Made by a program: the position numbers and the translations under genes. DNA of 64,000 nt, from NCBI GenBank assembly GCA_035283685.1, contig DATETJ010000008.1:64629-128628 (forward strand), given 5' to 3'. The stretch's first letter is position 1, and every line of letters begins with the position of its first letter. Shown here one piece after another: positions 5,570 to 23,167 of the stretch. This DNA comes from Candidatus Bathyarchaeia archaeon. Its GTDB lineage: Archaea; Thermoproteota; Bathyarchaeia; Bathyarchaeales; Bathyarchaeaceae. A model generated the notes under the pieces. It made no database searches. It saw only the letters and a list, made by a program, of their open reading frames with translations, and was not told the DNA's origin.

Positions 5570-6145
5570 GTGAAAAAGACCCAAGAATTGCAGATAACTA
5601 ATAGAAACGATTGGCGCAGAGGGCTTAAGACCAATCACCGCATCTATAAAGAGGTTTGGCTAGTTTTCTACAAGAGACACACTGGCAAGCCCAGCATGTC
5701 TTATGATGATGCGGTTGAAGAAGCCTTATGTTTCGGCTGGATTGACAGCATCGTCAAAAAGATAAACGACGAGAAATTTGCTCGAAAATTCACGCCTCGT
5801 AAGCCTAGCAGCAAATGGTCAGAGCTGAACAAGAGAAGAGCTGAGAAAATGATAGCTGAAGGAAGGATGGCAGAGGCTGGGCTAGCGCTGGTCAATCAAG
5901 CAAAGGATAGTGGGGAATGGCTCAAAAAGCAGCAAATCGAGAACAATCTTGTGCTTCCCGAATACATTAAGAATGCATTGAAATCAAATGGGAAAGCGCG
6001 GAGCAACTTCAATACGCTGGCACCGTCGTACAAGAAACAGTATGTTAGATGGGTTGACAGCGCTAAGAAGGAGGAGACACGCAAGCGACGCCTTGCAGAG
6101 CTTGTCGAAGTTCTTGAGAAAAATGAGAAGCTCGGGTTGAAGTAG
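5570..6145 (+). CDS. YdeI/OmpD-associated family protein
   Basis: VWLVFYKRHTGKPSMSYDDAVEEALCFGWIDSIVKKINDEKFARKFTPRKPSSKWSELNKRRAEKM is the typical YdeI-family core. The start is GTG. Confidence 0.7.
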   Translation: MKKTQELQITNRNDWRRGLKTNHRIYKEVWLVFYKRHTGKPSMSYDDAVEEALCFGWIDSIVKKINDEKFARKFTPRKPSSKWSELNKRRAEKMIAEGRMAEAGLALVNQAKDSGEWLKKQQIENNLVLPEYIKNALKSNGKARSNFNTLAPSYKKQYVRWVDSAKKEETRKRRLAELVEVLEKNEKLGLK

Positions 6146-6274
6146 AAGCTGCGGTTCACGCAGGTTCATGAGCCGAGGCAAAAAGAGGAAACAGAAGCCT
6201 ACAGCTGTTGAAGAAATAAGTATATAGCAAGTGCCCTCAATTTATGACCCAAGGCACAGAAGCCCAGAGGAATC

Positions 6275-9050: not shown

Positions 9051-10557
9051 CGGCCATTAGGAGTCCTAGTTCGGATTCGCTTGCTTTTTCAGGGTCTTTA
9101 AAAGCTACTATTCGACCTTCGTATATCACTGCGATTCTATCGCTCAAAGCCCATATTTCGTCTAGGTCAGCCGAAATCAGTAAAACCGCGCACCCTTTAT
9201 TGCGCATGTCTACAAGTTTGCCGCGGACGTATTCGGTTGCGCCAATGTCCAAGCCGCGAGTTGGCTGAGAAGCAATAATCAGTTTCGGGTTCCTACTGAA
9301 CTCTCTTGCCAAGACTACTCTCTGTTGGGTTCCGCCTGACAAATGCTGAGCCAGAGTGTCCTTATCGGGCGTTTTTATGGAGAATTCCTCGATCAGTCTT
9401 TTTGCGTAAGTTGAGGCTTCTTCAATGTTGATTACGAAGCTGGTTGCAAAAGGCGGTTTGTCGTGGCTTCCTAGCATCAGGTTCTCCATCACTGAGAAGC
9501 CCATGATCAAGCCTCTCTTCTGTCGATCTTCGGGCACGTAGGAAGTTCCCAGCTCTATCCTTTTGCCCGGAGATGCCTCGGTGATGTCGATTTCGTCCAT
9601 TAGTATTTTCCCTGCTATGGCTTTTCTGAGCCCAGCCAGTGTCTCAACCAGTTCGGTTTGTCCGTTGCCTTCGACTCCCGCGATTCCCAGGATTTCACAT
9701 GCGTAAACATCGAAGTCTATGCCCCTCAACGCGGGGAGACCTCGGTCATCAACAGCTTGAAGGTTTTCAACTTTGAGTACAGCTTTTCTGGTCGGAGGCT
9801 GTTCCTTGTCAAACTTGAAAACAACTTCTCGTCCTACCATCATTCTGGCCAGTTCGCCCAGATTGGTGGCATCCGCCCTAACGGTTCCTACGACTCTGCC
9901 TCTTCTCAGAACTGTAACCCGGTCGCAAATCGCCAGAACCTCTTGAAGTTTATGCGAGATAAAAATGACTGTCTTGCCTTGGTTTTTCAACGCCGAGATT
10001 GCTTTGAAAAGTTCCTGCACTTCCTGAGGTATCAGCACCGAAGTCGGCTCATCCAGAACAAGCACATCGGCGCCTCTGTACAAAGCTTTGAGTATCTCAA
10101 CTCTTTGTTGCACGCCTACAGGTAACGCGTGTGTTGGCGCCTTCAAGTCAACCTCTAGCTTATAGCGGTCGCAGAATTCCTTGACATCGTCGAGTGCTTT
10201 CTTCGTGTCCAGTAATATTCTGTTCTTTGTTGGCTCTCTTCCCAAGATGATGTTCTCTGTTACTGTGAGGCTGGGCACAACCATGAAATGTTGATGGACC
10301 ATGCCTATGCCCAGTTTTAGCGCTGTGCGCGGGCTGTCGATATCGACGTCTTTTCCGTCGACGAGGATTTTTCCTTCATCTGGTTTGTATAGTCCGTATA
10401 GAATGTTCATCAGAACCGTTTTGCCCGCTCCGTTTTCTCCGAGTAATCCGTGGATTTCGCCTTTTTCCACAGTGAAGTCTATCTTGTCGTTCGCTAATAC
10501 GCCTGGGAAAGACTTGGTTATGCCGTGCATTTCAATGGCTGGTGGCACACGTATCAA
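9034..10557 (-). CDS. ABC transporter ATP-binding protein with two fused ATPase domains
   Basis: Walker A is GENGAGKT, the signature-like motif is LSGGTQQRV, and Walker B is VLVLDEPT in domain 1 with a second, degenerate domain. The length of 507 aa is typical of sugar/nucleoside CUT2-type ATPases. Confidence 0.9.
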   Translation of the reverse strand: MIRVPPAIEMHGITKSFPGVLANDKIDFTVEKGEIHGLLGENGAGKTVLMNILYGLYKPDEGKILVDGKDVDIDSPRTALKLGIGMVHQHFMVVPSLTVTENIILGREPTKNRILLDTKKALDDVKEFCDRYKLEVDLKAPTHALPVGVQQRVEILKALYRGADVLVLDEPTSVLIPQEVQELFKAISALKNQGKTVIFISHKLQEVLAICDRVTVLRRGRVVGTVRADATNLGELARMMVGREVVFKFDKEQPPTRKAVLKVENLQAVDDRGLPALRGIDFDVYACEILGIAGVEGNGQTELVETLAGLRKAIAGKILMDEIDITEASPGKRIELGTSYVPEDRQKRGLIMGFSVMENLMLGSHDKPPFATSFVINIEEASTYAKRLIEEFSIKTPDKDTLAQHLSGGTQQRVVLAREFSRNPKLIIASQPTRGLDIGATEYVRGKLVDMRNKGCAVLLISADLDEIWALSDRIAVIYEGRIVAFKDPEKASESELGLLMAGGKPD

Positions 10558-10586
10558 AAAAAGGAAGCGGGGATTTAACCTTTCTA

Positions 10587-11630
10587 TCAGAAGGCGCTCG
10601 GCACCGTGATCTCGCCAGCGATGATTTTGTCTCTGGCCTCGTCCATCTTGTTTATCACTGTTGCTTCAAGAGTTGGGTGTGTGAACCCGAATTTTGCTTC
10701 CCAGAAGCTTTGTTCTTCAGGTAGTCTGCAGGCTCCGACCCATTGTTCCTTTAGTCCTCCGCTTTTGACGCCGCCTTGGAATTTCTTTTCGACAGCTGCC
10801 TTGATCATCTCAAACACTGCAACATCGACTCTCTTGGTCATACTAGCTTTTATTTCTGGATAAAGATAGCACTGATCGGCATCGACTCCAATCCCCAGAA
10901 TATTTCTTTCATGTATTGCTTCCAAGGCGCCTAAGCCGCTTTTGCCTGCTGCAACGAAGATTGCGTCAACTCCTAGGTCAATCAGTCCGATGGCTAGTTC
11001 CTTTCCTTTGGTTGGGTTAGCCCATTCACCGACGAATACAGGCGCTACTACTTCAACGCTGGAGTTTGCCCACTTCGCCCCGGCTTCATATCCCTTGAAG
11101 AAGTCTCTGATGAGAGGTATGTCCATGCCTCCGACAAAACCAACTTTTCCGGTCCTAGTCTTCATTCCAGCAGTTACCCCGACCAAGTAGGAACCCTCGT
11201 TTGCTTTGAACAAGAGCGAAGCTACATTTGACTTGTCTACAACCATGTCTACGATGGTGAAGTTTTGACTTGGGTACTCACCTGCAACTTTGGTCAAAGC
11301 ATCAGCCTGATCAAAGCCTATGCTAACGATGATCACATATTGGCCAGTCTTGGCAAAATCTCTCAGAAAGCCCTCATACTGAGCAATTGCCGTTGGTTCC
11401 ACGTAGTCAAACTCTATTCCCAACTCATCTTTTGCCTTTTGCACGCCTGCATAGGAAATGTCGTTGAACGACTGGTCGCCCAATCCGCCTGTAGCCAAAA
11501 CCAAACCCACTTTTGGCGCAGGTGTAACTGGTGGTCTAGTGACGACGTAGACTGCTACCGCCGCCACTACCAGCACGATTACGATTATCCCCGCGGCCAT
11601 TGCGGTTGATATACCCTTCTTGTTCATCAT
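10587..11630 (-). CDS. BMP-family ABC substrate-binding protein (membrane anchored)
   Basis: VGLVLATGGLGDQSFNDISYAGVQKAKDELG and the overall sequence match basic-membrane-protein/PnrA-like binding proteins. I prefer the ATGATG start at 11630 (preceded by GGAGGAC) over the GTG at 11696. An N-terminal TM anchor is present. Confidence 0.85.
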   Translation of the reverse strand: MMNKKGISTAMAAGIIVIVLVVAAVAVYVVTRPPVTPAPKVGLVLATGGLGDQSFNDISYAGVQKAKDELGIEFDYVEPTAIAQYEGFLRDFAKTGQYVIIVSIGFDQADALTKVAGEYPSQNFTIVDMVVDKSNVASLLFKANEGSYLVGVTAGMKTRTGKVGFVGGMDIPLIRDFFKGYEAGAKWANSSVEVVAPVFVGEWANPTKGKELAIGLIDLGVDAIFVAAGKSGLGALEAIHERNILGIGVDADQCYLYPEIKASMTKRVDVAVFEMIKAAVEKKFQGGVKSGGLKEQWVGACRLPEEQSFWEAKFGFTHPTLEATVINKMDEARDKIIAGEITVPSAF

Positions 11631-11813
11631 TTTGTCCTCCACACTCGCGTACGAGAGTATGGTTGTATGCTGCGTTTCCCGTTTTAAGCCTTTCACAAAC
11701 CACGTCGAAGCATCAGATCATGGGTTTCCAGCGATCTGGATGATGATGTCACTAGGAACAGTCTGACGACGACGCCCACACAACCTTCAGCCGCAAAGCA
11801 CGCTTCACATTGT

Positions 11814-12048
11814 AGAAGAAGGCTAAAGGGAATTGCCCCCTTCTTCTTTTGAAATTTCTCTTTCCGCAGAGCTCGTCAACATGCGCAAACGTCACGCTTG
11901 GCAACATGAAACGTCACGCATGCCAACATTGAACGTCACGCTAAAACACGAGTAAACAGCGCCAGAAACACCATACAAAACCAGCAACAGAACCCGAAAC
12001 GCAAACAGAAAACTGGAACTTTCACCGCAAAATTTTTTTCTGCACTCA
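11814..12048. repeat. left arm of ~235-bp imperfect inverted repeat (contains 3 phased iterons)
   Basis: The reverse complement of 15921-16157 aligns by eye. The outer hairpin is GAAGAAGG..CCTTCTTC. Three direct repeats CAACAT(G)..AACGTCACGC end at 11897, 11919 and 11941, a 22-bp period. The inner end AAAATTTTTTTCTGCACTCA is nearly identical to the other arm. Confidence 0.8.
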
Positions 12049-12080
12049 TACTAGCCCTCTCTCAGCCTAGCCCAAATAAC

Positions 12081-12088
12081 TTTTATAA
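12081..12088 (+). promoter_or_regulatory. candidate TATA box of the rps19e operon
   Basis: TTTTATAA is preceded by A-rich BRE-like sequence and lies ~57 nt upstream of the TTG start at 12145. Confidence 0.4.
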
Positions 12089-12144
12089 GACGCCCATTGC
12101 AATAACACAGCGAAACATACCCAAAACCGGAGCCAAAAAACAAT

Positions 12145-12603
12145 TTGCCCACACCCTACGACATACCAGCGCCACTCTACATACAACACCTAGCCAAATA
12201 CATAAAAGACAACATAGACCAAGTCACCCCCCAACCATGGACAACCACAGCCAAAACCAGCAGCCACACAAGCCGACAACCAGAAGACCCAGACTGGTGG
12301 TTCACCCGAGCCGCATCCATCCTACGCAAAACATACATACACGGACCAGTAGGCATTGAACAACTACGCGCCGACTACGGCGGACGCCACAGAAAAGGCT
12401 CCATCAGAGAACACGTCAGAAAAGGCAGCGGAGCCAACATCAGAAAAATCCTACAACAACTCGAAACAGCAGGCCTAATCGAAACCACAAAAAACAAAGG
12501 AAGAACCATAACCAGCCAAGGCAGACGAACACTAGACAAACTCGCAGCCGACATAAAAGAGCAACTGGAAAAAACCCAACCAGAACTCAAGAAATACCCC
12601 TAA
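12145..12603 (+). CDS. rps19e: 30S ribosomal protein eS19
   Basis: PTPYDIPAPLYIQHLAKYIK...WWFTRAASILRKTYIHGPVGIEQLRADYGG...IRKILQQLETAGLIE is a typical S19e. It is the first gene of the conserved archaeal cluster. The start is TTG. Confidence 0.9.
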   Translation: MPTPYDIPAPLYIQHLAKYIKDNIDQVTPQPWTTTAKTSSHTSRQPEDPDWWFTRAASILRKTYIHGPVGIEQLRADYGGRHRKGSIREHVRKGSGANIRKILQQLETAGLIETTKNKGRTITSQGRRTLDKLAADIKEQLEKTQPELKKYP

Positions 12604-12623
12604 CAAACGGATGAAAAAAGTCA

Positions 12624-12968
12624 TTGAGCGAAGACGAAATCGAGGAGCCAGAGCTCGAAGACATACGCCGACGCCGAATGCAAGAGCTACAGCAAAGACT
12701 AGGCCAAGAACAACAGCAAACACGAGCCCAACAACAGCTGGAAATGCAAAAGCAAGCCATAATCCGACGCATATTAACGCCCGAAGCTCGACAACGCCTA
12801 ACCAACCTCAAAATGGTGAAGCCCGAATTCGCCAACGCGTTGGAACTACAACTCATTCAGCTAGCACAAGGCGGAAGAGTGAAAACACCAATCACAGATG
12901 AACAGCTAAAAGAGATACTCGTACGATTGCAAGGGCAACGACGAGAAATCAAAATAACAAGGCGATAA
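12624..12968 (+). CDS. PDCD5/TFAR19-family DNA-binding protein
   Basis: [37 protein letters not shown]...[10 protein letters not shown] matches the dsDNA-binding PDCD5-like family. That family always follows rps19e in archaea. The start is TTG. Confidence 0.85.
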
Positions 12969-12975
12969 AGAAACC

Positions 12976-13131
12976 ATGGCACGAAACAAGCCAACAGCCA
13001 AAAAACGTCGATTAGCTAAAGTTGGGAAGCAGAGAAAAGCGGTTCCAACATGGGTCATGGCTAAGACTCGAGGTAGAGTGCGAACCAACCCGAAAAGGGG
13101 GCATTGGACACGGTCGAAGATAAAGCCGTAG
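12976..13131 (+). CDS. rpl39e: 50S ribosomal protein eL39
   Basis: This gene is below the ORF-track size cut-off. Hand translation from ATG 12976 gives [51 protein letters not shown] (51 aa), with stop TAG at 13129-13131. That is a typical L39e in the expected operon position. Confidence 0.85.
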
Positions 13132-13640
13132 ATGAACAGCCAACAGAAGAAGCTGAAAAGCCTGAAGAAGGCGTTGAAGAAGAATTAGTCGAAGAAGCAC
13201 AGCCCACGGAAGAAACTGAAGCAGAAGAAAAGAAAGAGGAACCCAAAGCTGAAGAAGCCGAGGAAGAAGAGCCTGAAGCTCTAGCTCCCGAAGAAGAGGA
13301 AAAAGAAAAGAAAGAAAAACGCGAAAAGACGCCCGAGGAAGAGGAAATCGTTGAAGAAAGAATCTACACGATCCCTCTGCGCCGAGCTTGGATTTCTCCA
13401 AGAAAAAAACGGGCGCCAAGAGCCATACGCATAGTCAGAAGTTTTATCCAACGTCACATGAAAGTTGAAACTGGAGTTAAGGCTGAAGAAGAGGAAGAAG
13501 AAGGGCGGTTAGTCATCAGCAACGAAGTGAACGAGAAACTGTGGAGCCGCGGCATTGAGAAACCGCCTAGAAACATCCGAGTGCGAGCTGTCAAAGACAA
13601 AGAAGGCGTGGTTACGCTTTATTTGGCTGAAGGAGATTAA
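13104..13640 (+). CDS. rpl31e: 50S ribosomal protein eL31 with long acidic N-terminal extension
   Basis: The core [36 protein letters not shown]...[21 protein letters not shown] matches L31e. The only in-frame start codon upstream of the core is TTG 13104, so ~85 E/K-rich residues precede the core. Confidence 0.75.
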
Positions 13641-13642
13641 CT

Positions 13643-14323
13643 GTGGCCATTGACCTGATAGGTTTGTTTGGCAGCGCAAGCATAGGAGTATACTCGCTCA
13701 CAACCGAGAAAATGACCATCGTGCCACCTCTCGTTTCTAAAACTAAAGCCAGTCGACTCGAGGAATGCCTCAAGACCAAGGTTATCAGGACTACGATCGG
13801 CAAGTCTGCTTTGATAGGTGCTTTGGCAAGTGCCAATTCAAACGGCGTAGTGCTTCCGCATTATGTTGACGACAAGGAGGTAGACGCCATAAGGTCGACG
13901 GTGCCCGAGGTTAATGTTACAGTAATGGAGACTAAGCGAACTGCTTACGGTAACATGGTGCTGGCAAACGATAAAGGCGCCATAGCTGACCCTAGGTTGA
14001 AGGAAGTGGATTTGGCGAACATTTCTGATGCATTTGGCGTCGAAGTTGTTTCCGGTGAGATTGCAGGTCTGCCCTACGTTGGCTCGTTGGCAACCGTAAC
14101 AAATAAGGGCGTGCTCGCGCATCCGTTGCTGAAAGAAGAAGAACAAAGGCGACTAAAGGAAGTGTTGAAGGTGCCGATCGATTTGGGCACGATCAATTGT
14201 GGAATCCCGTATGTGGGCACTGGACTAATAGCGAACAGTCATGGCGCAGTTGCGGGATTTGGGACAACTGGCCCAGAGCTCTTTATTATTGGTCAAGCGT
14301 TGGACGTGGTGAAAGTGGAATGA
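13643..14323 (+). CDS. eif6: translation initiation factor 6 (aIF6)
   Basis: The protein has 226 aa with the pentein repeat pattern (GSASIGVYSLTTEK..., NSNGVVLPHYV, LANDKGAIADPRL, VTNKGVLAHPLL, IANSHGAVAG). The start is GTG. Confidence 0.9.
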   Translation: MAIDLIGLFGSASIGVYSLTTEKMTIVPPLVSKTKASRLEECLKTKVIRTTIGKSALIGALASANSNGVVLPHYVDDKEVDAIRSTVPEVNVTVMETKRTAYGNMVLANDKGAIADPRLKEVDLANISDAFGVEVVSGEIAGLPYVGSLATVTNKGVLAHPLLKEEEQRRLKEVLKVPIDLGTINCGIPYVGTGLIANSHGAVAGFGTTGPELFIIGQALDVVKVE

Positions 14324-14571
14324 GTGAAGTTAAAGTGTTCCGGGTTGTGGGCAAGATCACGAAGCCAAATTACAAGACGGATTTTCGAAAAGAGATTCGT
14401 GCCTTGAAGCCTGAAGAAGCGGTTGAAAGAGTTTACATGGAAATTGGTAGCAAACACAGAGCTAAACGAGTTCATATCAAAGTGTTGAAGGTTGAAGAGA
14501 TCAGTGCTGAGGAAGTTACGGACGCAAGTGTTAGAAAGTTGATTTTGGGAGAAAATGAAAGTGTCCAGTAG
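14320..14571 (+). CDS. rplX: 50S ribosomal protein LX (eL20/L18Ae family)
   Basis: MSEVKVFRVVGKITKPNYKTDFRKEIRALKPEEAVERVYMEIGSKHRAKRVHIKV is a typical LX. Its ATG overlaps the aIF6 stop as ATGA. The ORF-track start at 14197 lies inside eif6 and is unlikely. Confidence 0.8.
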   Translation: MSEVKVFRVVGKITKPNYKTDFRKEIRALKPEEAVERVYMEIGSKHRAKRVHIKVLKVEEISAEEVTDASVRKLILGENESVQ

Positions 14572-15028
14572 TGATAGGGAAGCTTTCAGGTCGCTGTCGG
14601 TTGAGCTTCAGATTTTGGAGGGGACTGCTGAGACGTTGCAGGCGAGGCTTAACTTGGTTAATGCTGCTTTGACCGAGTTGAATATTGCGAGAATGACGTT
14701 GGAAGGCGTTGAGAACGAATCATCCGAAGCGCCTCTGTTTGTCCCCATCGGTGGAGGTTCTTTCATCAAGGCGAAGTTGGAGAGCAATGACAAGGTTGTT
14801 GTGGGCACGGGTGCTGGAGTGTCTATTGAGCGTACGGTTGCTGAGGCTAAGCAGACGCTTCAGAGTCGGATAGCTGAGTTGGAGAAGAGCCGGACTGCTA
14901 TTCAGCAGCAGTTCATGCAGGTTGTGGGCAGGATTCAAGAGAATAGGGAGAAGCTTCAGGATTTGTCTGTCAGACTGAGTCAGGCTGGGAGAAGGGCAAG
15001 TGTTCCAGAAACTGAGAGCCGGCCTTAA
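14555..15028 (+). CDS. pfdA: prefoldin subunit alpha
   Basis: Two coiled-coil arms flank the hairpin region LFVPIGGGSFIKAKLESNDKVVVGTGAGVSIE. The gene is in its conserved position before ftsY. Confidence 0.85.
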   Translation: MKVSSSDREAFRSLSVELQILEGTAETLQARLNLVNAALTELNIARMTLEGVENESSEAPLFVPIGGGSFIKAKLESNDKVVVGTGAGVSIERTVAEAKQTLQSRIAELEKSRTAIQQQFMQVVGRIQENREKLQDLSVRLSQAGRRASVPETESRP

Positions 15029-15905
15029 AGGGTTAGTTGAGAAGGTTGCTACAACCCAGCTGAAGGCTGAGCAGATTCGTCCTGTTTTGCAGGATTTCAA
15101 GTTAGAGCTTATCGAGAATGATGTGGCTTTTTCGGTTGCGGATCATTTAGGGGCTGAAATGGAGAAGCGGTTGGATGGTGTGCAGGTTAAGAGGCTTGAG
15201 GACAGGAAACAGGTGGTTAGGGATAACCTGCGGTCTGTGTTGCTTGGGATTTTGACTCCGAGCGAGAAGATCGACTTTCTGGAGTTGGCTGAGAGGAAGC
15301 GTGGGTTGAAGGAGCCTTTTGTTGTTGTTTTTGTCGGTATTAATGGCACGGGTAAGACTACGAGTATTGCGAAAGTGGCTAAGCTTTTGATGAGGCGTGG
15401 GTTTAGTGTGGTTTTGGCTTGTGCGGATACTTATCGGGCTGGTTCGATTGAGCAGTTGGAGGAGCATGCTCGCCGGTTGGGTGTGCGTATGATTAAGCAT
15501 GGGTATGGCAGTGATCCGGCTGCGGTGGCTTTTGATGCGATTAGTCATGCTCGGGCTCATGGGATTAATGTGGTTTTGATTGATACGGCGGGGCGGATTC
15601 AGACTGATCGGAATTTGATGGCGGAGTTGGGTAAGGTTAAGCGTGTGGTTAAGCCTGATTTGACTGTGCTTACGGTTGATTCGTTGACGGGTAATGACGC
15701 TGTTATGCAGGCTGAGGAGTTTCATAAGAGTGTGGGTATTGATGCTACTATTTTGACTAAGACGGATGCGGATGTTAAGGGTGGGTCAGCGCTTAGTGTA
15801 ACCTATGTGACTAAGAAGCCTGTTTTGTTCATTGGTACGGGTCAACGGTATGATGATTTGGAGGAGTTTAAGCCTGAACGCTTCACGGATATGATACTCA
15901 AGTAA
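15000..15905 (+). CDS. ftsY: signal recognition particle receptor FtsY
   Basis: The N-terminus is MFQKLRAGLKGLVEKV. The NG domain carries GINGTGKTT, DTAGR and TKTDAD GTPase motifs. The GTG start overlaps the end of pfdA. Confidence 0.9.
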   Translation: MFQKLRAGLKGLVEKVATTQLKAEQIRPVLQDFKLELIENDVAFSVADHLGAEMEKRLDGVQVKRLEDRKQVVRDNLRSVLLGILTPSEKIDFLELAERKRGLKEPFVVVFVGINGTGKTTSIAKVAKLLMRRGFSVVLACADTYRAGSIEQLEEHARRLGVRMIKHGYGSDPAAVAFDAISHARAHGINVVLIDTAGRIQTDRNLMAELGKVKRVVKPDLTVLTVDSLTGNDAVMQAEEFHKSVGIDATILTKTDADVKGGSALSVTYVTKKPVLFIGTGQRYDDLEEFKPERFTDMILK

Positions 15906-15920
15906 ACTGATAGATGTACG

Positions 15921-16157
15921 TTGAGTGCAGAAAAAAATTTTTAGGAGTGAAGTTTTGAGTTTCTGTTTGCGTTCTGAGCTCTGTTTCCGTTTCTATATGG
16001 TGTTTCGGGGTCTGTTTTTGCGGTTTTTGGGTGCGCTTCTATGTTGGTTAGCGTGACGTTCTATGTTGGCATGCGTGACGATTGAACATGTTGACTGTGC
16101 TCTGAGGGAAAAGAGATTTCAGAAGAAGAAGACAACTGACCCCTTACGCCTTCTTCT
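15921..16157. repeat. right arm of ~235-bp imperfect inverted repeat
   Basis: This arm is the reverse complement of 11814-12048. GCGTGACG iterons start at 16050 and 16072, with a degenerate copy at ~16028, again a 22-bp period. The outer hairpin is GAAGAAG..CTTCTTC. Confidence 0.8.
15934..15941 (+). terminator. oligo-T tract after ftsY (candidate archaeal terminator)
   Basis: AAATTTTT lies ~30 nt after the ftsY stop, inside the inner end of the right repeat arm. Confidence 0.35.
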
Positions 16158-16212
16158 GCTGATGTGATGTCGAGTTTGCTTCCCTGTTCTTAGGAGGCTT
16201 CTCCGAGTATTG

Positions 16213-16470
16213 TCAGATTTTTGCATGTGTTCTTTCGCGTGAGTATGAGATTAGTTGGTTTTGTTTGTCTAGTTCCATGGTGAAGACTGTGGAGCGTGTG
16301 CGTCCCAGTCGGGAGCGTGTTTGGAAAATGCCGTGGAGGAGTACGCGGTCTTGTTCTTTCTTCATTTCGTCAAAATCAACTGTGCAGACACTGTCGCCGT
16401 GGACGGCGCAGAGGATTTTCAAGACAACGTCTTTGATTTTTCCTGCTTCTTCGTATGGTTCCGCTGTCAA
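16213..16470 (-). CDS. hypothetical small protein (85 aa)
   Basis: This is an ORF only, and I recognise no motif. It is followed on its strand by the hairpin plus T-rich outer end of the right repeat arm. Confidence 0.35.
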   Translation of the reverse strand: MTAEPYEEAGKIKDVVLKILCAVHGDSVCTVDFDEMKKEQDRVLLHGIFQTRSRLGRTRSTVFTMELDKQNQLISYSRERTHAKI

Positions 16471-16628
16471 GACTTTTTAGCCTCTGTTGTTCTAGCATGC
16501 AATTCTCTGCAAGTCCACATAAGAGTTGTTGCTGTGAAGCTGGATTAAGCATAAATGTGCAGTTGAAGAAACAGAAGCATGAAGACCCTTAAGGTTGGGC
16601 TTGCAGCAAGTAAGGATAGGAAAGGTGA

Positions 16629-18176
16629 GTGAGGGTGGGAACGGAAGAGACGTTAAACTCAGACTACGAGAAGCTGTTGGCGAGAGCCAAGGACATCGTA
16701 ATCCTGCGGTCTGTAAATGAGGTCATCGGGTGGGATATGCAGACCAAGATGCCGCCTAAAGGCATCGGGCTTCGTGGTGAACAAAGCGCACTGCTTAGTC
16801 GATTTTTCCATAAGATGAACACTGACCCGGAAGTCAGCACGCTTTTGGAGAAAATTGAGAGGCATCCTGACTATCCAAGTCTCAGTGAGCTCCAGCGACG
16901 AAATGTCTACCTAGTCAGAAAGAACTATGACGAACAGACGAAACTGCCGGAAAAGCTCGTTGCCGAGACAGCCAGACAAACGGCCATCGCGTTCGGCATT
17001 TGGAAGAAAGCCAAAGCCGCCAAGGATTATTCTCTGTTCAAACCTGAACTCGCCAAGGTCATTGACCTCATAAAGCAAACAGCCGCCATCCTGATGGAGG
17101 TGAAGAAAACCGCGACGCCGTACGATGCCTTAATCGATATCTTCGAACCAAAGATGACGGCTAGCCAGATTACCCCAATTTTCAATGAACTCAAGACACA
17201 CCTCATCAAAATCATAGACAAATGCACGAATTCGTCGAAGCAACCCGATCCTTCCATCCTCAGACGAAAAGTTCCTATAAGTGCGCAAGAGGAAATCTCC
17301 AAATCGCTGGCCAAATTCATCGAATACGACGCTGAATCCAAGAACGCAGGCGGTCGAATCGACGAGGCTGAGCATCCTTTTACAGCAGGGTACTTTGATG
17401 ACGTAAGAATCACAACGCACTACTACGAAGACGATGTAACATCGTCCCTGTTTTCGGTGCTTCACGAAGGGGGTCACGCACTCTACGAACAGGGCTTTAG
17501 CCCAGAATGGATGTACCTACCCGTGGGATCAAGTGCCTCCGCAGGCTTCCATGAGTCTCAATCACGCTTAGTGGAGAACATGATAGGCCGCTCAAGCGAG
17601 TTCTGGACCAGCTACTATTCACAGTTCAAGGCATTGACAGGCAGCACCTTCTCAGATATTCCATTGGACGCTTTTGTCCACGCAATCAACAGGGTTCAAC
17701 CTTCCAAAATCCGCGTCGAAGCGGACGAAGTCACCTACAGCTTGCATGTTATAATCCGGTTTGAAATCGAACAGGCTCTATTCCAAGACAAAGTAACAGT
17801 GGATGAGCTACCAAGCGTTTGGAACCAAAAGTACATGGATTACCTTGGCCAGAAGATCGAGAATGATTCAGAGGGAGTTATGCAGGACATACACTGGGCT
17901 GGAGGAGGCTTCGGATACTTCCCATCGTACGCTCTAGGAAACATGTATGGGGGACAGATATTCGCAGCATTTGCGAAGGACGTGCCAAACTGGGCTAGTC
18001 AACTGGAGAAAGGCGACTTCCACAACATCAGACAATGGTTGACCACTAACGTGTTCAGCCACGGAAACCTGTACGATCCGATTCCACTTCTGAAGAAAAT
18101 CACGGGTCAGGAAATCAACGTTAAACCTTTCATCGACTACCTGAACACAAAATTCTCAAAAATCTACGAATACTGA
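16629..18176 (+). CDS. carboxypeptidase Taq-like metallopeptidase (M32)
   Basis: HEGGHALY (HExxH) is present together with AEHPFTAG, DDVRITTHY, IRVEADEVTY and GVMQDIHWAGG. These match all the conserved M32 blocks I recall. Confidence 0.9.
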   Translation: MRVGTEETLNSDYEKLLARAKDIVILRSVNEVIGWDMQTKMPPKGIGLRGEQSALLSRFFHKMNTDPEVSTLLEKIERHPDYPSLSELQRRNVYLVRKNYDEQTKLPEKLVAETARQTAIAFGIWKKAKAAKDYSLFKPELAKVIDLIKQTAAILMEVKKTATPYDALIDIFEPKMTASQITPIFNELKTHLIKIIDKCTNSSKQPDPSILRRKVPISAQEEISKSLAKFIEYDAESKNAGGRIDEAEHPFTAGYFDDVRITTHYYEDDVTSSLFSVLHEGGHALYEQGFSPEWMYLPVGSSASAGFHESQSRLVENMIGRSSEFWTSYYSQFKALTGSTFSDIPLDAFVHAINRVQPSKIRVEADEVTYSLHVIIRFEIEQALFQDKVTVDELPSVWNQKYMDYLGQKIENDSEGVMQDIHWAGGGFGYFPSYALGNMYGGQIFAAFAKDVPNWASQLEKGDFHNIRQWLTTNVFSHGNLYDPIPLLKKITGQEINVKPFIDYLNTKFSKIYEY

Positions 18177-18258
18177 CAGTGAGCACTCGAACCAGCACGC
18201 GCTTATTCAATTCCCTATTGGTGATACTGACGCTGCTGCAGTTGCGGATTGGCTGATG

Positions 18259-19362
18259 CTATATTAGGAATTTTCCTTTCTTGTAGATTAGCTTGCCGTC
18301 TGCGCGTATTTCTCCGTCTTTCTTCATGTCTTTCAACAGGTCCCAATGAACAGCTGACTTGTTGAGTCCCCCAGTCTCAGGGTAGGAAGCACCAAGAGCC
18401 ATGTGAATTGTCCCGCCCATCTTTTCATCAAAGAGAATTCTCTTTGTGAATCTTGTTATGCCATAATTGGTTCCGACGGCGACTTCGCCGATCCGGTCTG
18501 CACCCTCGATTCTCAGAATCTCCTGCAGCAACTCATTGCCCTTAGCTGCCTTTGCCTTTGTCACCTTTCCGCCTTTGAATGTAAGAGTTATGTCCTCGAT
18601 TTCTTTGCCCGAATATATTCCCGGGTAACTGAATCTTATGGTGCCATTGACTGAGTCTTCAACTGGTGCTGTAAAGACCTCACCGTCGGGCATGTTGAAT
18701 TTTCCGTCGCAGTTTTCCCATTTTCTTCCCTTCACGCTGAAGACGAGTTCAGAGTCCTTACATGTAATTTCGATTTTGTCAGCGTTATTTAGATACTTGC
18801 AGATCCTTTCCTGACTTGAGCGAATCTTCTTCCATTCTTTAACTGGGTCCTCTTTGTCGATCAAGCAGCTTTTGTACACAAAGTCTTCATATTCCTGTAG
18901 TGCCATGGAAGCTTCTTGGGCGTCGGCACTGATCGGGTAAGGTAAGAGTACCCAACGAAGATCACCAGCACCGGAACGTTTCATGTATTCATCCATGAAA
19001 TCTTTCCATGAAGCTTGCCTCGTCGCGATTTTTGCTGGGTCTACGCCAGTTAGGCGTTTTGGGTTGGGATTGCAGCCCACAGTTATGTAGACATCGACTT
19101 TCTTGATAATGAAATTCCAGATGGACCGGGTGAAGTTTTGGTGCAACTGGTGTTTCTTTGCGTATTTGTAGAATATGTAGTCGGTGTCAAGCTCCGGAAG
19201 AATCGACGGGTCTGCATCGCTCAGAATGCACTCTTTGTATATCTCGTTTATCAATGGGTGGGCGATATCTCTTCCTTCGATGAGAACTTTGTCCTTCGGC
19301 TTCACAGCAACACAGTATTGAACGCAAAGCTTCGCAAGTTTCTCGATTCTCGGATCCACCAT
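18259..19362 (-). CDS. aminopeptidase, M29 (AmpS/PepS/aminopeptidase T) family
   Basis: The length is 367 aa. The N-terminus MVDPRIEKLAKLCVQYCVAVKPKDKVLI and the C-terminal GTNYGI...GGTIHMALG...HWD are typical M29 blocks. Confidence 0.85.
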   Translation of the reverse strand: MVDPRIEKLAKLCVQYCVAVKPKDKVLIEGRDIAHPLINEIYKECILSDADPSILPELDTDYIFYKYAKKHQLHQNFTRSIWNFIIKKVDVYITVGCNPNPKRLTGVDPAKIATRQASWKDFMDEYMKRSGAGDLRWVLLPYPISADAQEASMALQEYEDFVYKSCLIDKEDPVKEWKKIRSSQERICKYLNNADKIEITCKDSELVFSVKGRKWENCDGKFNMPDGEVFTAPVEDSVNGTIRFSYPGIYSGKEIEDITLTFKGGKVTKAKAAKGNELLQEILRIEGADRIGEVAVGTNYGITRFTKRILFDEKMGGTIHMALGASYPETGGLNKSAVHWDLLKDMKKDGEIRADGKLIYKKGKFLI

Positions 19363-19517
19363 TCAAACCACATTCCTGAAATAAAGGCAACTCTTGAGTG
19401 TTAGGAAAAGTTTCGTTCTTATGGTTTGTGGAAACGTGACAATGTACGTCTTCTATCTGAAACTCGGGAAGAAATGACAAGAATCCGAGCCCTTTCAACA
19501 GCGCGCTTTTAGTATTC

Positions 19518-20051
19518 CTAGTCCTCAATTCCGTGTAGGTTGATTCTTTGATACGGTTTCCTAGTACGGTTGAGAATTCTACTCATTCGGTAAGCCATGA
19601 TAACGAACAATGTAAACATGATTCCTGTCGCCAAAGCAAGGTACAATAGATTACAGAGTAGGAACAACAACCACAGTGACGAACCGAGCATAAGCCAACT
19701 AAATATATAGACTGGCCCAGTCCCGCCCTTCGAGTAGCGCTGTGGCAGTTTTGGGGCGAATACTACGCAGTAGCTCAGCAATGCCTCGTTATCATATAGT
19801 CCGTAAAGTAGAGTGTAGAATAAGGCGGCTAGAAAGAAAAGCATGGTTTGCGACTGCCAAGTGCTAGGGTCTGGAAACCGAGTAATGAGTATGGTTATTG
19901 CTGTGAATGTAAAACCTGCAAACAGAGAGAGATTTCTCGAAATGACCGAGTGAAAAGCCACATATGCTGAGAGTTTCGTTTCTTCAGCCGACATTTCACA
20001 ATCCTCAGAAGAGCTAGTTATCTGACTTGGATTCTTATTGCTTGTGCGCAC
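19518..20051 (-). CDS. hypothetical integral membrane protein
   Basis: About four hydrophobic helices are present. It overlaps the upstream methyltransferase gene by 17 nt. Confidence 0.5.
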   Translation of the reverse strand: MRTSNKNPSQITSSSEDCEMSAEETKLSAYVAFHSVISRNLSLFAGFTFTAITILITRFPDPSTWQSQTMLFFLAALFYTLLYGLYDNEALLSYCVVFAPKLPQRYSKGGTGPVYIFSWLMLGSSLWLLFLLCNLLYLALATGIMFTLFVIMAYRMSRILNRTRKPYQRINLHGIED

Positions 20052-20793
20052 ACGTGTAAGTTTTTTGAAAAGCTGCTATGTATGCTGAGTTGTCTGAGTC
20101 TATGGTTTCCTTGATTTTCCATCCTGTTCCTTTGAGTATCTCTTCCATTTCTTTCTTGGACACTATCAGGTAGTCGAACCATCTGCCAACGCATTTCCTG
20201 AACCTTATTCTTAGTCTCAGTTGCCCCGGCATTCTACCTCTCTGCCTATTGAGCTTGTGATACTCCAAGTGCTCAGGGATGCTAGTCTTGAACGTGTCAC
20301 GAGTGCTGGCAATAATCAATCCGCTCTCAGAAGTGATCTTATGCAGTTTCTTCAGTATTCTCTTAGCCGTTTTTAAGCCGCCGAATAAGCCGAAGTTGCT
20401 GCCCATCATGATGACTGTGTCGAACGAGTTGGGCTTGAAGTCCAGTTCTTCAATTGCCGTGACTCTTGCTTTCTTCAGTCCTCTGAGCTTGCTGACTTTG
20501 ATCGCTAGGGGTGAGCTGTCGATTCCTAGTACGTCGAATCCTTTGTTTTGCAGGTACAAGGAGTGTCTGCCGGCTCCGCAGCCGATGTCTAGGACTCTTC
20601 CTTTCACGAGTTCCATGGCTTTTCTTTCAATCGGCGCCCAGTCTTCGTATTCTGAGAAGTAGTTTTTAGGATTTCCCGGGGTTGCATTGAAGTAGCCGTC
20701 ATCTCTTTCCACTACTTCTGAAGCTTCTTCGCCCTTGTAGCAAGCCCAAATCTCCTGACCAAACGTATCTTCCTCAGGCTTAAGTTTCTTCAT
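20035..20793 (-). CDS. class I SAM-dependent methyltransferase
   Basis: VLDIGCGAGRHSLYL is motif I, and it is followed by VLGIDSS and a Rossmann-fold pattern. Confidence 0.85.
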   Translation of the reverse strand: MKKLKPEEDTFGQEIWACYKGEEASEVVERDDGYFNATPGNPKNYFSEYEDWAPIERKAMELVKGRVLDIGCGAGRHSLYLQNKGFDVLGIDSSPLAIKVSKLRGLKKARVTAIEELDFKPNSFDTVIMMGSNFGLFGGLKTAKRILKKLHKITSESGLIIASTRDTFKTSIPEHLEYHKLNRQRGRMPGQLRLRIRFRKCVGRWFDYLIVSKKEMEEILKGTGWKIKETIDSDNSAYIAAFQKTYTCAHKQ

Positions 20794-20916
20794 ACCAAGT
20801 CATTGACCACATCTTCCCATGTGTCGGTTCTTATGGCTTGTGGAGAACATTGGAGTGATTCACAACGCCATGTGAGCGCATGGAATTTCTATCCCCACCC
20901 AACCCGCCCGCCCATT

Positions 20917-21441
20917 CTAATGGTTTTCCTTAAGTGAATGATGGAAGACACATTCCTTTGAGCCTGCCAAGTATCCTCCTTCTTTGTAACCATGCTTTCG
21001 AAATGCAGCCAGCGCCGCCGGATGATCAGCATAAAACACTAAATCAAAGTAACCCTCACTCTTCATGTAAACCTCAAAGAAGTCTAAGAACTCATTTCCG
21101 TAGCCTTTTCCTCTATGTGTCTCAATCAACCACCATTCATGAAGCTCAACAAAGTCTTTCTTCCCATCCAATAGCTTTTCCAATGCCTCTGTGTCTTCTT
21201 TGTTTCTGGGGGAACCTTTCCTATGTTCTTCAGTGTTGCTTTCATGCCAGACTGCATGACCCACAATCTTGCCGTTTTCTCTCCAAACAATGAGCTGAAC
21301 AAAATTGCTCTTGATAGAACCTACAAGCATTTCAAACAGTCTATCATGATTGAATCCTTTAGACTCTTGACGGTACCCATTTCTACTCCAATATTCCTTG
21401 AACTCCTCAGACTGGGGGTCACAACCAACCTCAAACCTCAA
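20917..21441 (-). CDS. GNAT family N-acetyltransferase
   Basis: The acetyl-CoA motif WLIETHRGKGYGNEFL (R/Q-x-x-G-x-G/A) is present and the C-terminal FRKHGY is typical. Confidence 0.7.
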   Translation of the reverse strand: MRFEVGCDPQSEEFKEYWSRNGYRQESKGFNHDRLFEMLVGSIKSNFVQLIVWRENGKIVGHAVWHESNTEEHRKGSPRNKEDTEALEKLLDGKKDFVELHEWWLIETHRGKGYGNEFLDFFEVYMKSEGYFDLVFYADHPAALAAFRKHGYKEGGYLAGSKECVFHHSLKENH

Positions 21442-21471
21442 GAACCAACCATCTGCCTAAACCTTTGACTG

Positions 21472-21942
21472 CTAAAGCTTCTGTTCTCTTTTCCTTCCTT
21501 CATTGTAGAGATATTCAAAATGGTCCCACAGTGTTGGAAAGTTGTATTGCTTTCTAGCTCCCTCAACGATAGGTTTCATTTTCTTCCAAATCATGTTGGT
21601 AGGCATTTCTGAAAGAGCCTCATAGTCTACAAGACCGCTGTGAAGAAGCTCTCCAGCTCCTTCATACAAGTTGGCAACCACTGACATTGCCACGGCAACT
21701 GGTGTTTCAGCAAATGGTGCACCGTATTTCTTCAAGAAATCATCGTAGTCCTCAAACTCCAGGTTCCACACTTTAAAAGTAGCTTCAAGGAACTCTTTGC
21801 TATTGAAACTCTGATAAACTCTCCAGAATGCATCTGTCTTTCTCATCTTGGTTTGATGCCTAAGCTGAAGAGCATAATAGATGATTCCTGCAACAACACT
21901 TGCGGAAGCAACAGCAATAGAAACTGTCTGAATATCAACCAC
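21472..21942 (-). CDS. hypothetical protein with N-terminal membrane anchor
   Basis: A single N-terminal TM (VSIAVASASVVAGIIYYAL) is followed by a soluble alpha-helical domain. I recognise no family with confidence. Confidence 0.5.
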   Translation of the reverse strand: MVDIQTVSIAVASASVVAGIIYYALQLRHQTKMRKTDAFWRVYQSFNSKEFLEATFKVWNLEFEDYDDFLKKYGAPFAETPVAVAMSVVANLYEGAGELLHSGLVDYEALSEMPTNMIWKKMKPIVEGARKQYNFPTLWDHFEYLYNEGRKREQKL

Positions 21943-22061
21943 TTTTGATACCCAGAAGACAAGATTAGCTGGATTAGTATTAAAGACTAGACCATGAAGA
22001 GAACATCAGACAAAAAAGCCTTTAATCAAAGCCCTATATGCTGGTGACGGACAAAGCCGCT

Positions 22062-22148
22062 CTACTTCTCAGTTTTTGTCAGTATTCTTGGTTCTTCCCA
22101 TTCCTCTCTGAAAATGCTAAGAGGCACGTCTTGAGTAATGCGTTCATT
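22062..22148 (-). pseudogene. relic of the 3' end of a RimJ/RimL-type GNAT gene
   Basis: Hand translation gives NERITQDVPLSIFREEWEEPRILTKTEK*. The C-terminus of the intact GNAT at 24598-25137 is ..TDLFIFSILREEWKEPRILTKTR*. About 55 bp (22072-22126 against 24603-24657) are roughly 85% identical by eye. No upstream ORF body is present. Confidence 0.45.
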
Positions 22149-23097: not shown

Positions 23098-23167
23098 ATG
23101 GCGATTCTCCTTTCGTCTGAATGAAGGAAAACGATATTTAAGAGTTACATCGCGCGTGCTAGAATGC

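Follow-up and report, generated by a model that had tools for sequence, protein, structure and literature searches.

Two mirror-oriented tracts of strand-biased composition beside inverted copies of a 255-bp element in a bathyarchaeial ribosomal-protein operon

The operon, its flanking elements and the flip in composition

The window analyzed here is a 64,000-nt stretch of a Candidatus Bathyarchaeia archaeon contig. It carries a ribosomal-protein operon whose front, in one lineage of these sediment archaea, is near-pure A/C and whose tail is near-pure G/T on the same strand. Genes were assigned from the Pfam table of an identical locus (L081), and the keto skew, (G+T-A-C)/N, was computed at third codon positions (k3). 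In the left tract (11800..13500, plus strand) the sense strand is pushed to A+C; this tract covers a repeated element, rps19e (12145-12603, k3 -0.88, 94% A/C), a PDCD5-like gene (12624-12968, -0.51), rpl39e (12976-13131) and most of rpl31e (13104-13640, -0.26). The unskewed centre (13643..14571) is formed by eif6 (13643-14323, +0.09) and rplX/L18a (14320-14571, +0.18). In the right tract (14500..16550) the plus strand is pushed to G+T and the minus strand is A+C-rich; here lie pfdA (14555-15028, +0.54), ftsY (15000-15905, +0.76, 89% G/T), the inverted copy of the element and an 85-aa minus-strand ORF. All of the named genes are on the plus strand. We named rpl39e by its own sequence and tblastn orthologues rather than from the Pfam table, and its third positions are purine-rich (A 0.37, C 0.10, G 0.37, T 0.16). 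The sequence-only reading had assigned nearly all third positions of rps19e, the PDCD5-like gene and rpl39e to A or C and those of pfdA and ftsY to G or T, which fails for rpl39e.

The two copies of the ∼255-nt element were located by repeat search, pairwise alignment and an nhmmer profile at 11808..12062 on the plus strand (E = 3e-72) and, inverted, at 15907..16161 on the minus strand (E = 1e-61); they are ∼71-78% identical, depending on the alignment. Read toward the operon, the left copy is A+C-rich and contains a hairpin (11814-11850), ∼2.6 tandem 22-nt units of the form AAACGTCACGCxTGxCAACATx (11887-11941) followed by an A/C-rich spacer, an A4T7 run (12028-12038) and the motif CATACTA (12047-12053). 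The hairpin and the A/T run are conserved across 18 element copies, and the hairpin, whose inner stem covaries, is the sole consensus structure detected in the element. The inner end of the right copy lies 2 nt past the ftsY stop codon, and most element-bearing members of the clade hold the element at this same position, 0 to 10 nt after ftsY. A TATA-like box, CTTTTATAAGACGC (12080..12093, plus strand), sits ∼50 nt upstream of the rps19e start; alignments of upstream regions show it kept in all left-hand element copies and missing from right-hand copies. By analogy with archaeal promoter architecture, it is a candidate promoter.

In 600-nt windows the keto skew reaches -0.44 at 12.0 kb and +0.33 at 15.3 kb, against a mean of 0.008 (sd 0.103) in 191 windows outside the region, giving z = -4.4 and z = +3.1 for the left and right extremes. 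The minimum within the A+C-rich stretch (∼11.8-13.5 kb) is -0.56 per 200 nt and the maximum within the G+T-rich stretch (∼14.5-16.55 kb) is +0.41 in sliding windows; GC content stays flat at ∼0.48 across the flip. These values bear out the flip that had been proposed from hand counts, and the three 60-nt counts themselves (A+C/G+T of 47/13, 16/44 and 20/40) were exact. The description of a repeat-bracketed module is right as to the inverted repeat; the G+T zone extends past it to ∼16.55 kb. The sign change had been placed near the geometric centre of the repeat pair, and we found the zero crossing at 13.5-13.9 kb and the centre at 13,985. The skew peaks adjoin the two element copies and fall to zero centrewards with the same profile on both sides: inward from either copy the skew is strong from +100 to +1100 nt and lost by ∼+1700 nt, and outside the element a same-sign ramp of ∼700 nt accompanies this long inward tail. 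The region thus comprises two separate, mirror-oriented tracts of ∼1.5 kb rather than a single mirror event.

The minus-to-plus keto switch, read left to right, has the polarity of a bacterial-type origin, and a bidirectional origin or another process diverging from the repeat-pair centre had been suggested on this ground. Against an origin placed there, the observed skew is weakest at the centre, which falls within eif6, and strongest at the repeats. In addition, further patches of similar sign and strength occur 11-25 kb away in the same window, and Orc1/Cdc6 was found neither among the 20 window ORFs scanned nor in the gene tables of related loci.

Inheritance of the tracts and their link to the element

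Two independent assemblies contain the locus at 100% (L081) and 99.98% (L082) identity to the window, and a whole clade with FtsY 80-92% identical has the same flip in its orthologous operons. The architecture recurs across many samples, in more than 20 diverged lineages, with all reading frames at the locus intact and gene order conserved. No point in favor of an assembly chimera or sequencing artefact was found, and such an origin of the flip can be put at next to no probability. When compared with ftsY from 76 other Bathyarchaeia (GTDB species representatives; mean codon-3 skew -0.12, sd 0.13), the window gene lies 6.9 sd away. The flip in composition is genuine, inherited and tied to the two inverted copies of the element. 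With an element within 120 nt of its stop codon, ftsY has k3 values of 0.28 to 0.87 (median 0.69, 19 lineages), versus -0.73 to +0.56 (median -0.10, 131 lineages) when none is there (Mann-Whitney p = 3e-12, without phylogenetic correction). The right-hand element of L087 is found 2.1 kb away from ftsY, upstream of SUI1; the G+T zone adjoins it, with skew in SUI1 and none in ftsY. For tract formation the element is nevertheless neither sufficient nor necessary: no long tract accompanies the copy next to tRNA-Gln in L291, and tracts occur in the absence of the element in L166 and the L117/L123/L124 group.

Lineages at 77-92% FtsY identity and some GTDB species have the left tract, and the right tract is mostly limited to lineages in which the inverted element adjoins ftsY; the left tract is both the older and the more widespread. 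Halves of different age, together with the detached right-hand zone of L087, do not fit a center-diverging process. The module is flanked by different genes in different genomes, and these varied neighborhoods, along with the lack of Orc1/Cdc6 among the ORFs checked, leave a replication origin unsupported and hardly credible. Instead, the architecture looks like two convergent strand-specific mutation tracts.

We also considered whether the two element copies delimit a module that is, or once was, mobile, with the skew left behind by a single-stranded intermediate of replication or transposition. The ends are inverted and carry three 22-bp direct repeats apiece, much as the ends of Mu and Tn7 carry protein-binding repeats; synteny breaks at the element; and the element is dispersed, with copies adjoining rps19e, ftsY, SUI1 and tRNA-Gln. 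Yet the cargo is an essential, universally conserved archaeal cluster, which genomes without the element keep in the same order, and the left tract predates the right element. Left and right copies are 66% identical within genomes and 64% between genomes, and give no sign of orthology or of concerted evolution. No nickase, Rep or transposase gene was found near the locus among the window ORFs checked or in the gene tables of related loci, and matches to the element motifs in the viral contigs scanned were at about the estimated chance number. A mobile module is very improbable.

A directional pressure on the strand

Across 159 orthologues of ftsY, codon positions 1 and 2 track position 3 (r = 0.87 and 0.81, respectively), and they follow it in 108 orthologues of rps19e as well. 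This implies directional pressure on the DNA instead of codon selection and rules out purely translational selection. That amino-acid composition follows the trend, as had been noted from the translations, is thus borne out as a property of the DNA strand and not as ordinary codon bias. The 85-aa ORF (16213..16470, minus strand), which has no Pfam match and may be spurious, its strand being poor in stops, has A/C-rich third positions of its own (-0.67), indicating that composition follows the strand and not gene orientation. The long antisense ORFs that had been listed at 15147-15725 and 13012-13419 both exist; strands poor in stops yield such ORFs as by-products, and a 194-aa ORF mis-called across SUI1 in L087 is a further example.

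The pressure runs beyond gene ends into convergent neighbors, whatever their reading direction. In L291, SUI1 (k3 -0.81; -0.88 in L087) overwrites the convergent TFIIB gene, leaving it at +0.49. In L166 the entire operon is A+C-rich (-0.56 to -0.80), the tract has a sharp end at the operon boundary, the ftsY stop codon, and the convergent OTCase gene is overwritten to +0.36. A convergent OTCase gene also points at ftsY in L117 and L123, where ftsY k3 is +0.41 and +0.28, and in L123 the 400 nt downstream of ftsY have a plus-strand keto skew of +0.4 to +0.58. Outside the operon, extreme genes are A+C-rich in sense in 10 cases versus G+T-rich in 2, and those with extreme sense-strand A+C third positions include the recognizably highly expressed thermosome, L11, Spt5 and SUI1. 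Divergent gene pairs share strand-level skew (r = -0.36, sense values), as do adjacent opposite-strand genes (r(sense,sense) = -0.30), the former showing that a replication-type strand-domain component also exists.

The high expression of the A+C extremes is what one would expect if composition itself were selected. In translation genes, A/C-ending codons read by Watson-Crick pairing with GNN/UNN anticodons and an unstructured A+C mRNA would be favored, RNA of A and C alone being unable to self-pair, and a G/U-rich ftsY-pfdA message would be poorly decoded or differently folded so that its expression stays below that of ribosomal-protein genes in the same operon. Free interchange inside the favored class also agrees with such selection: in the tracts, G/T differences occur at 0.114 of {G,T} sites versus 0.063 in the control, and A→T, like A→G, appears favored. 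Selection of this kind does not account for the shift of codon positions 1 and 2 and of amino-acid composition, nor for the effects on non-coding DNA and on the antisense strand of neighbors, with TFIIB, OTCase and the 85-aa ORF all following the strand. Moreover, unfavorable codons at 89% of ftsY third positions would be without precedent, and the L1, L10 and L12 genes of L166 are only mildly skewed (-0.12 to -0.29). We regard selection on composition as a rather unlikely cause, less so than a mobile module.

Transcription as a possible driver and comparison with known systems

Transcription had been dismissed as a cause because both halves of the operon are transcribed in the same direction; this argument ignores antisense and convergent transcription, and convergent overwriting is seen at TFIIB and OTCase. 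Our best reading, offered tentatively and as somewhat short of probable, is a mutational asymmetry linked to transcription, by which the RNA-like strand moves toward A+C. In its favor are the highly expressed genes among the A+C-sense extremes, the end of the L166 tract at the operon boundary and the spread into convergent neighbors. In each tract, the strand reading 5′ to 3′ away from an element copy has been pushed to A and C, in non-coding DNA as well as at every codon position; this is the sense strand of the ribosomal-protein genes on the left and the antisense strand of ftsY-pfdA on the right. Where transcription is very heavy, DNA of this clade may gain A+C on its RNA-like strand and G+T on its template strand. 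The left tract would then represent the strongly expressed 5′ part of the operon plus the upstream element, which may itself be transcribed or promote transcription. From the inverted element and any minus-strand unit beyond it, antisense transcripts would run convergently into the operon's 3′ end, overwriting the composition of ftsY and pfdA and producing the right tract.

Several observations count against transcription as the driver. The left tract starts ∼300 nt upstream of the TATA box, the T7 run of the element should terminate inward transcripts, no antisense promoter was identified in the last codons of ftsY, and the L1-L10-L12 genes of L166 have only a mild skew. To these come the element copy without a long tract, the tracts without an element and the strand-domain component seen in divergent gene pairs. 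The substitution spectrum at 4-fold sites does not set transitions apart from a general keto-class preference. Finally, classical transcription-associated asymmetry in bacteria and mammals, with deamination of the non-template strand, has the reverse sign, so that template-strand-biased damage, non-template-biased repair or template-strand gaps after replisome-RNA polymerase encounters would be needed.

The sign is instead the standard one for single-strand deamination if the element exposes one DNA strand, either by a strand-specific nick or gap resected 5′ to 3′ inward or by fork stalling with helicase-polymerase uncoupling. Deamination of C to U and of A to hypoxanthine would then make the exposed strand G+T-rich over 1-2 kb. 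This is the main rival, and we consider it unlikely, if more plausible than selection. Besides needing no special pleading on sign, it suits the ∼700-nt same-sign outer ramp with its long inward tail, as from a gap widening on one strand, and the indifference of the skew to gene orientation; the gradient resembles that of single-strand time in vertebrate mitochondria. The hairpin with its covarying inner stem, the three 22-bp direct repeats and the A/T run recall sites bound or nicked by replication or transposition proteins. Set against it are the tRNA-Gln copy without a long tract in L291, the tracts without an element in L166 and the L117/L123 group, and the lack of a nearby nickase, Rep or transposase gene; nor does strand exposure predict that highly expressed genes are enriched among A+C-sense extremes.

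Known transcription-associated asymmetries include an excess of C→T on the non-transcribed strand of enterobacteria, a G+T excess on the coding strand of mammalian genes, and asymmetries localized at 5′ ends. Like these, the pattern described here is strand-specific, begins near the 5′ end of a unit, decays over ∼1-2 kb and is stronger in highly expressed genes. Around transcription start sites of plants and fungi, C exceeds G on the sense strand to a degree that rises with expression (PMC555766); this skew has the same G/C sign as the archaeal case, with a C-rich sense strand, and provides a precedent for it. Here, unlike in known transcription asymmetries, codon-3 skew is 0.8-0.9 versus roughly 0.05-0.3, A/T is affected as well as G/C, the protein sequence is reshaped and convergent neighbors are overwritten. 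The literature searched held no archaeal description of such an asymmetry.

The H strand of vertebrate mitochondrial DNA undergoes deamination (C→T, A→G) that scales with the time spent single-stranded. Both systems have third positions near-saturated with A+C on one strand and G+T on the complement, a positional gradient, and an amino-acid composition that follows. In mitochondria the gradient extends over an entire small replicon and is bound up with its strand-displacement replication, whereas the tracts here are 1.5 kb long, lie inside a chromosome as a mirror pair, and have recurring counterparts elsewhere. Replication-associated GC and keto skews switch sign at origin and terminus and, as here, go with the strand, whichever way the genes point; the pairs of adjacent opposite-strand genes show a weak background of this sort. 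They are step functions of modest amplitude over hundreds of kilobases, in contrast to a pair of 1.5-kb peaks fading toward the switch point. AID somatic hypermutation extends ∼1.5-2 kb downstream of a promoter, and engineered polymerase-deaminase systems use convergent promoters. The likeness lies in tract length and shape, in anchoring at one end and in the complementary changes that a convergent pair makes on the two strands. No deaminase or dedicated machinery was identified here, and diversification is not the purpose, since purifying selection acts on the housekeeping genes that are hit; the tracts represent an evolutionary equilibrium, not a somatic event.

Strand composition along the rps19e-ftsY operon

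The conserved cluster rps19e, PDCD5-like gene, rpl39e, rpl31e, eif6, rplX (L18a), pfdA, and ftsY lies entirely on the plus strand, and there is a striking composition flip along it. The keto skew of the plus strand, (G+T-A-C)/N, taken over 200-nt windows, drops to a minimum of -0.56 at 12.1 kb, changes sign at 13.5-13.9 kb, peaks at +0.41 at 15.4 kb, and remains positive up to ∼16.55 kb, with GC content flat at ∼0.48 across the flip. Relative to 191 other 600-nt windows of the 64-kb window (sd 0.103), the two extremes are -4.4 and +3.1 sd. The same skew at codon third positions (k3) also changes sign gene by gene, with values in operon order of -0.88, -0.51, +0.06 (rpl39e), -0.26, +0.09, +0.18, +0.54, and +0.76. 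The flip proposed in a sequence-only reading is thus real, and the three 60-nt hand counts given there were exact upon recount; a small error was the claim of A or C third positions in rpl39e, which are purine-rich. Under the first-start rule of the ORF listing, most operon genes begin with TTG (rps19e at 12145, the PDCD5-like gene at 12624, rpl31e at 13104) or GTG (eif6 at 13643, ftsY at 15000), not ATG. The 5′ part of rpl31e (13104-13420) encodes a long N-terminal extension rich in Glu and Lys; its DNA has purine-rich tandem-like repeats, and its AT skew reaches 0.65. Several relatives (L009, L014, L016, and L077) have a gap of ∼1.4 kb between rpl31e and eif6, and rpl31e k3 reaches +0.7 there.

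Comparison of assemblies indicated that the locus is not a chimeric artefact, as it recurs in two other ENA assemblies at 100% identity over 8.0 kb and 99.98% over 5.0 kb; the identical FtsY protein is recorded on several contigs (4 examined), these two among them. The window is archaeal in origin, and all 80 genome loci of close FtsY relatives belong to Bathyarchaeia MAGs. Among 76 GTDB species representatives, the codon-3 skew of ftsY was -0.12 ± 0.13 with a maximum of +0.18, placing the ftsY of the window 6.9 sd away, and that of rps19e averaged -0.12 with a minimum of -0.59. The flip was common to metagenome lineages at 80 to 92% FtsY identity (rps19e -0.45 to -0.95, ftsY +0.28 to +0.87) and absent from more distant ones. 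The metagenome relatives form a graded series, and the flip is not private to this genome. Related loci at 74 to 81% identity (L087, L132, and L158) already carry the A+C-rich left half, as does the GTDB genome L004, and their ftsY is unskewed or weakly negative. The apparent mirror image therefore consists of two features with separate histories, of which the left half is the older. A further related locus, L166, is A+C-rich over the entire operon (-0.56 to -0.80), and its tract ends sharply at the ftsY stop codon.

Skew at codon positions 1 and 2 followed that at position 3 both in 159 ftsY orthologues (r = 0.87 and 0.81) and in 108 rps19e orthologues (r = 0.80 and 0.45); at position 1, ftsY and rps19e of the window lie ∼4 to 5 sd from unskewed orthologues. 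Noncoding DNA is skewed as well, and opposite-strand genes track the strand and not their own sense, as seen for an 85-aa ORF (-0.67 on its own strand), OTCase in L166 (+0.36), and the TFIIB gene downstream of SUI1 in related locus L291 (+0.49). Since positions 1 and 2, noncoding DNA, and the antisense strands of neighbors are all affected, we conclude that a directional, probably mutational pressure acts on DNA or nucleic acid composition, and we reject translational codon selection alone. At 4-fold sites of ftsY, where saturation makes parsimony unreliable, changes per 1000 were 127 for A→G, 130 for C→T, 95 for A→T, and 62 to 121 for G↔T; at these saturated synonymous sites most changes ran from amino to keto, with fast G↔T exchange within the keto class. 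A deamination gradient set by single-strand time, as in mitochondria, would predict a surplus of the transitions C→T and A→G on the exposed strand. Polarizing substitutions by outgroups and three-taxon sets depended on parsimony at saturated sites with small counts, and was not relied on.

The 255-bp element and the shape of the tracts

The inverted repeat said to bracket the module was recovered by alignment as ∼255 nt at 11808-12062 and 15907-16161 with an identity of ∼71 to 78% that varies with the alignment used. A profile HMM built from 18 repeat copies matched ∼80 to 90 nt upstream of rps19e and, in most lineages with an ftsY skew of at least 0.28, at a second, inverted site whose inner end lies 0 to 10 nt past the ftsY stop codon; it matched none of the 80 GTDB loci. 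With an adjacent element (n = 19), ftsY skew was 0.28 to 0.87 (median 0.69), versus -0.73 to +0.56 (median -0.10) without one (n = 131; Mann-Whitney p = 3e-12, the lineages not being phylogenetically independent events). When skew profiles are anchored at its outer end, left and right copies of the element share one shape: a weak ramp over 700 nt outside, a skew of -0.3 to -0.54 at +100 to +1100 nt inward, and zero by ∼+1700.

The element consists of an outer hairpin (AGAAGAAGG...CCTTCTTCT) whose inner stem covaries and encloses a TAAG loop, a conserved motif (TGAAATTT), about three tandem units of 22 nt each, an A/C-rich spacer, an A4-7T5-7 run, and a CATACTA motif. A TATA-like box (CTTTTATAAGACGC) lies downstream of left-hand copies only, and the rps19e TATA motif has only chance-level matches elsewhere in the window. 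The outer hairpin was the only consensus fold of six element copies. Rfam scans came back empty both for 11-17 kb at E ≤ 1 and for the whole window at the gathering score, so that the element matched no curated RNA family; a tRNA scan of the window also found nothing. In viral contigs, scans gave 71 single matches to the hairpin and 46 to the 22-nt unit, the latter close to the number that chance was estimated to yield for a 16-base pattern, and were uninformative. Identity between left and right copies is 66% within a genome and 64% between genomes, and as within-genome identity is no higher, gene conversion, concerted evolution, and RNA pairing of the two copies were rejected.

Element copies also occur in other settings. 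In L087, a second copy lies 2.1 kb beyond ftsY, immediately upstream of SUI1 (aIF1); there SUI1 has a k3 of -0.88 and ftsY is unskewed (-0.18). In L291, a copy at 5966-6247 (minus strand) abuts the 3′ end of tRNA-Gln(CTG) at 5893-5960 with no long skew tract, and related locus L287 carries an element-like inner-end motif at the same tRNA-Gln position. Copies in rps19e, ftsY, SUI1, and tRNA-Gln contexts indicate a dispersed family. The copies are inverted, hold three 22-bp repeats each, and are dispersed. Transposon or MITE ends of the Mu/Tn7 type would be expected to show terminal inverted repeats with several transposase-binding repeats, a target-site duplication, and a transposase in cis or trans; a transposase was not found, and the cargo between the copies is an essential conserved operon. 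Inversion of the segment was rejected as the cause of the flip, since it would not yield opposite halves. Synteny breaks at the right-hand element (window 16200-30700 versus 9200-11800 of related locus L083): OTCase, tRNA deacylase, and YhbY lie within ∼3 kb past ftsY in L083 and ∼14 kb further on in the window, with M32, M29, and M55 peptidases, a methyltransferase, a kinase gene, and a beta-lactamase-family gene intervening.

The sequence-only reading had noted that the sign switch near the center of the repeat pair (∼13.9-14.0 kb) has the polarity expected at a bidirectional replication origin or another divergent strand-exposing process; our results do not support an origin there. Such an origin would give a step-like switch centered on itself; the skew instead peaks beside the repeats and declines toward the center, being ∼zero at 13.5-14.5 kb and smallest inside eif6. 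The two halves also differ in age, the right zone in L087 has shifted along with the element, different genes flank the module in L083, L084, L086, and L087, and the window holds similar patches at other sites. An adjacent orc1/cdc6 gene was not found in the Pfam tables of loci L081 and L083-L087 or among 20 scanned ORFs of the window. Rather than inverted ORBs closely flanking a short A/T-rich unwinding element, the locus has inverted repeats 3.85 kb apart with eight genes between them, each repeat with its own A/T run, and a center made up of coding sequence; the 22-nt units were compared with ORB consensus sequences by eye.

The IleRS gene (39126-42170, minus strand) carries two patches, at 39050-40000 and 40500-41300, with G/T sense third positions (k3 0.5-0.78 over 160 to 300 codons) and unskewed stretches between them; a hairpin-plus-T7 terminator-like site (∼39060-39100) marks the end of the 3′ patch. 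A 1261-aa kinase/AAA_16/TPR gene (25199-28984, minus strand) has a 1.6-kb G+T sense patch in its 5′ half (27300-28950, k3 0.3-0.68), which begins at the 5′ end of the gene and is abruptly bounded by the divergent intergenic region near 28975. The 255-bp element was not found at this patch.

Transcription and strand exposure as possible sources of the tracts

The best description of the locus is a pair of convergent tracts of strand-specific mutation, anchored near a dispersed 255-bp element, and the tracts are, most likely but tentatively, linked to transcription. Outside the operon, genes with extreme third positions were A+C-rich on the sense strand in 10 cases and G+T-rich in 2. Among the former are thermosome, L11, Spt5, and SUI1, genes that usually show high expression, gene identity being the only proxy for expression. 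In L291, the SUI1 tract carries on for ∼1 kb within the convergent TFIIB gene. In the element-free group of related loci L117 and L123, a convergent OTCase gene heads toward ftsY, ftsY skew is +0.41 and +0.28, respectively, and the 400 nt past ftsY in L123 show a strong A+C excess on the sense strand of OTCase. Extremes in typically highly expressed genes, together with tracts that end at or spill over the ends of transcription units, point to transcription. As the simplest unifying model, we suggest that the RNA-like strand of heavily transcribed DNA would turn A+C-rich in these organisms and that, where two units converge, the stronger would overwrite the 3′ end of its weaker partner. In the clade of the window, the unit converging on ftsY would be the inverted element plus whatever lies past it. 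With a promoter-like motif after the hairpin and a T-run at the end, the element might also be transcribed as a small unit of its own.

Transcription leaves several observations to be reconciled. Classical transcription-associated deamination enriches the nontemplate strand in G+T. Here, rps19e, SUI1, thermosome, and L11 have A+C-rich sense strands. A precedent for this sign exists in plants and fungi, where a sense-strand excess of C over G at transcription start sites scales with expression (PMC555766). The T7 run in the element should halt inward transcripts, the tracts already start ∼300 nt before the TATA box, ftsY-pfdA would require a putative antisense transcript, the element is neither sufficient for a tract (L291) nor necessary (L166 and L123), and the L1-L10-L12 genes in L166 are just mildly skewed. 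Sense skews of adjacent opposite-strand genes were negatively correlated in convergent and divergent pairs alike, so that read-through is not separable from strand domains in this comparison, and a replication-type strand-domain background is also present.

The main rival holds that the element exposes one strand, by a nick or gap with 5′ to 3′ resection or by fork stalling, followed by ordinary deamination. This fits the sign, and also the ramp, which keeps one sign on either side of the element. It leaves both the element-free tracts and the tract-free copy unexplained, along with the link to highly expressed genes. A broader proposal, which we regard as less likely than not, is that this Bathyarchaeia clade has an undescribed, locally targeted strand-specific mutational process. 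It would be either coupled to transcription with an anti-classical sign, through template-strand damage or nontemplate-strand repair, or triggered by the dispersed element through exposure of one strand; it would be strong enough to bring synonymous sites to saturation and reshape essential proteins over 1 to 2 kb, with neighbors overwriting each other's codon usage and amino acid composition.

Consequences for annotation and comparison with known asymmetries

The tracts are conserved over long evolutionary times and drag the essential proteins S19e, FtsY, prefoldin, and IleRS along. They produce long false ORFs and mis-called genes that mislead gene callers, can mislead skew-based origin prediction, and bias phylogenies from ribosomal-protein and SRP markers. 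At L087 10487-10795 (minus strand), a called 194-aa gene is a frame artefact of the stop-poor A+C-rich strand; the true gene is a 103-aa SUI1/aIF1 with 94% A/C third positions. If transcription is the driver, the tracts would allow expression and antisense activity to be read from sequence alone in a phylum of uncultured archaea, and would point to an unknown archaeal asymmetry of DNA damage or repair.

Elsewhere in the window, the noncoding region 38150-38570 (plus strand) contains a long GC-rich stem (GCGCGCGCGGTCTGGAGCG...CGGGCACGCGCGC) with a predicted fold 3.1 sd below shuffled sequences; it has no match in Rfam and may encode a structured RNA that is missing from the annotation. A gene for a CdvA-like coiled-coil protein of the cell-division ESCRT system (42871-43584, plus strand) adjoins a histone-deacetylase-family gene.

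In literature searches on local keto skew and on Bathyarchaeia strand asymmetry or codon usage, we found no account of this pattern. We class it as a transcription- or single-strand-associated strand asymmetry that is unusual in its magnitude, its sign, and its local architecture, in a clade of uncultured archaea. As a rule, local asymmetries between strands are weak traces of replication or transcription. The footprint in animal mitochondria is equally strong, whereas here it is restricted to kilobase tracts within a chromosome.
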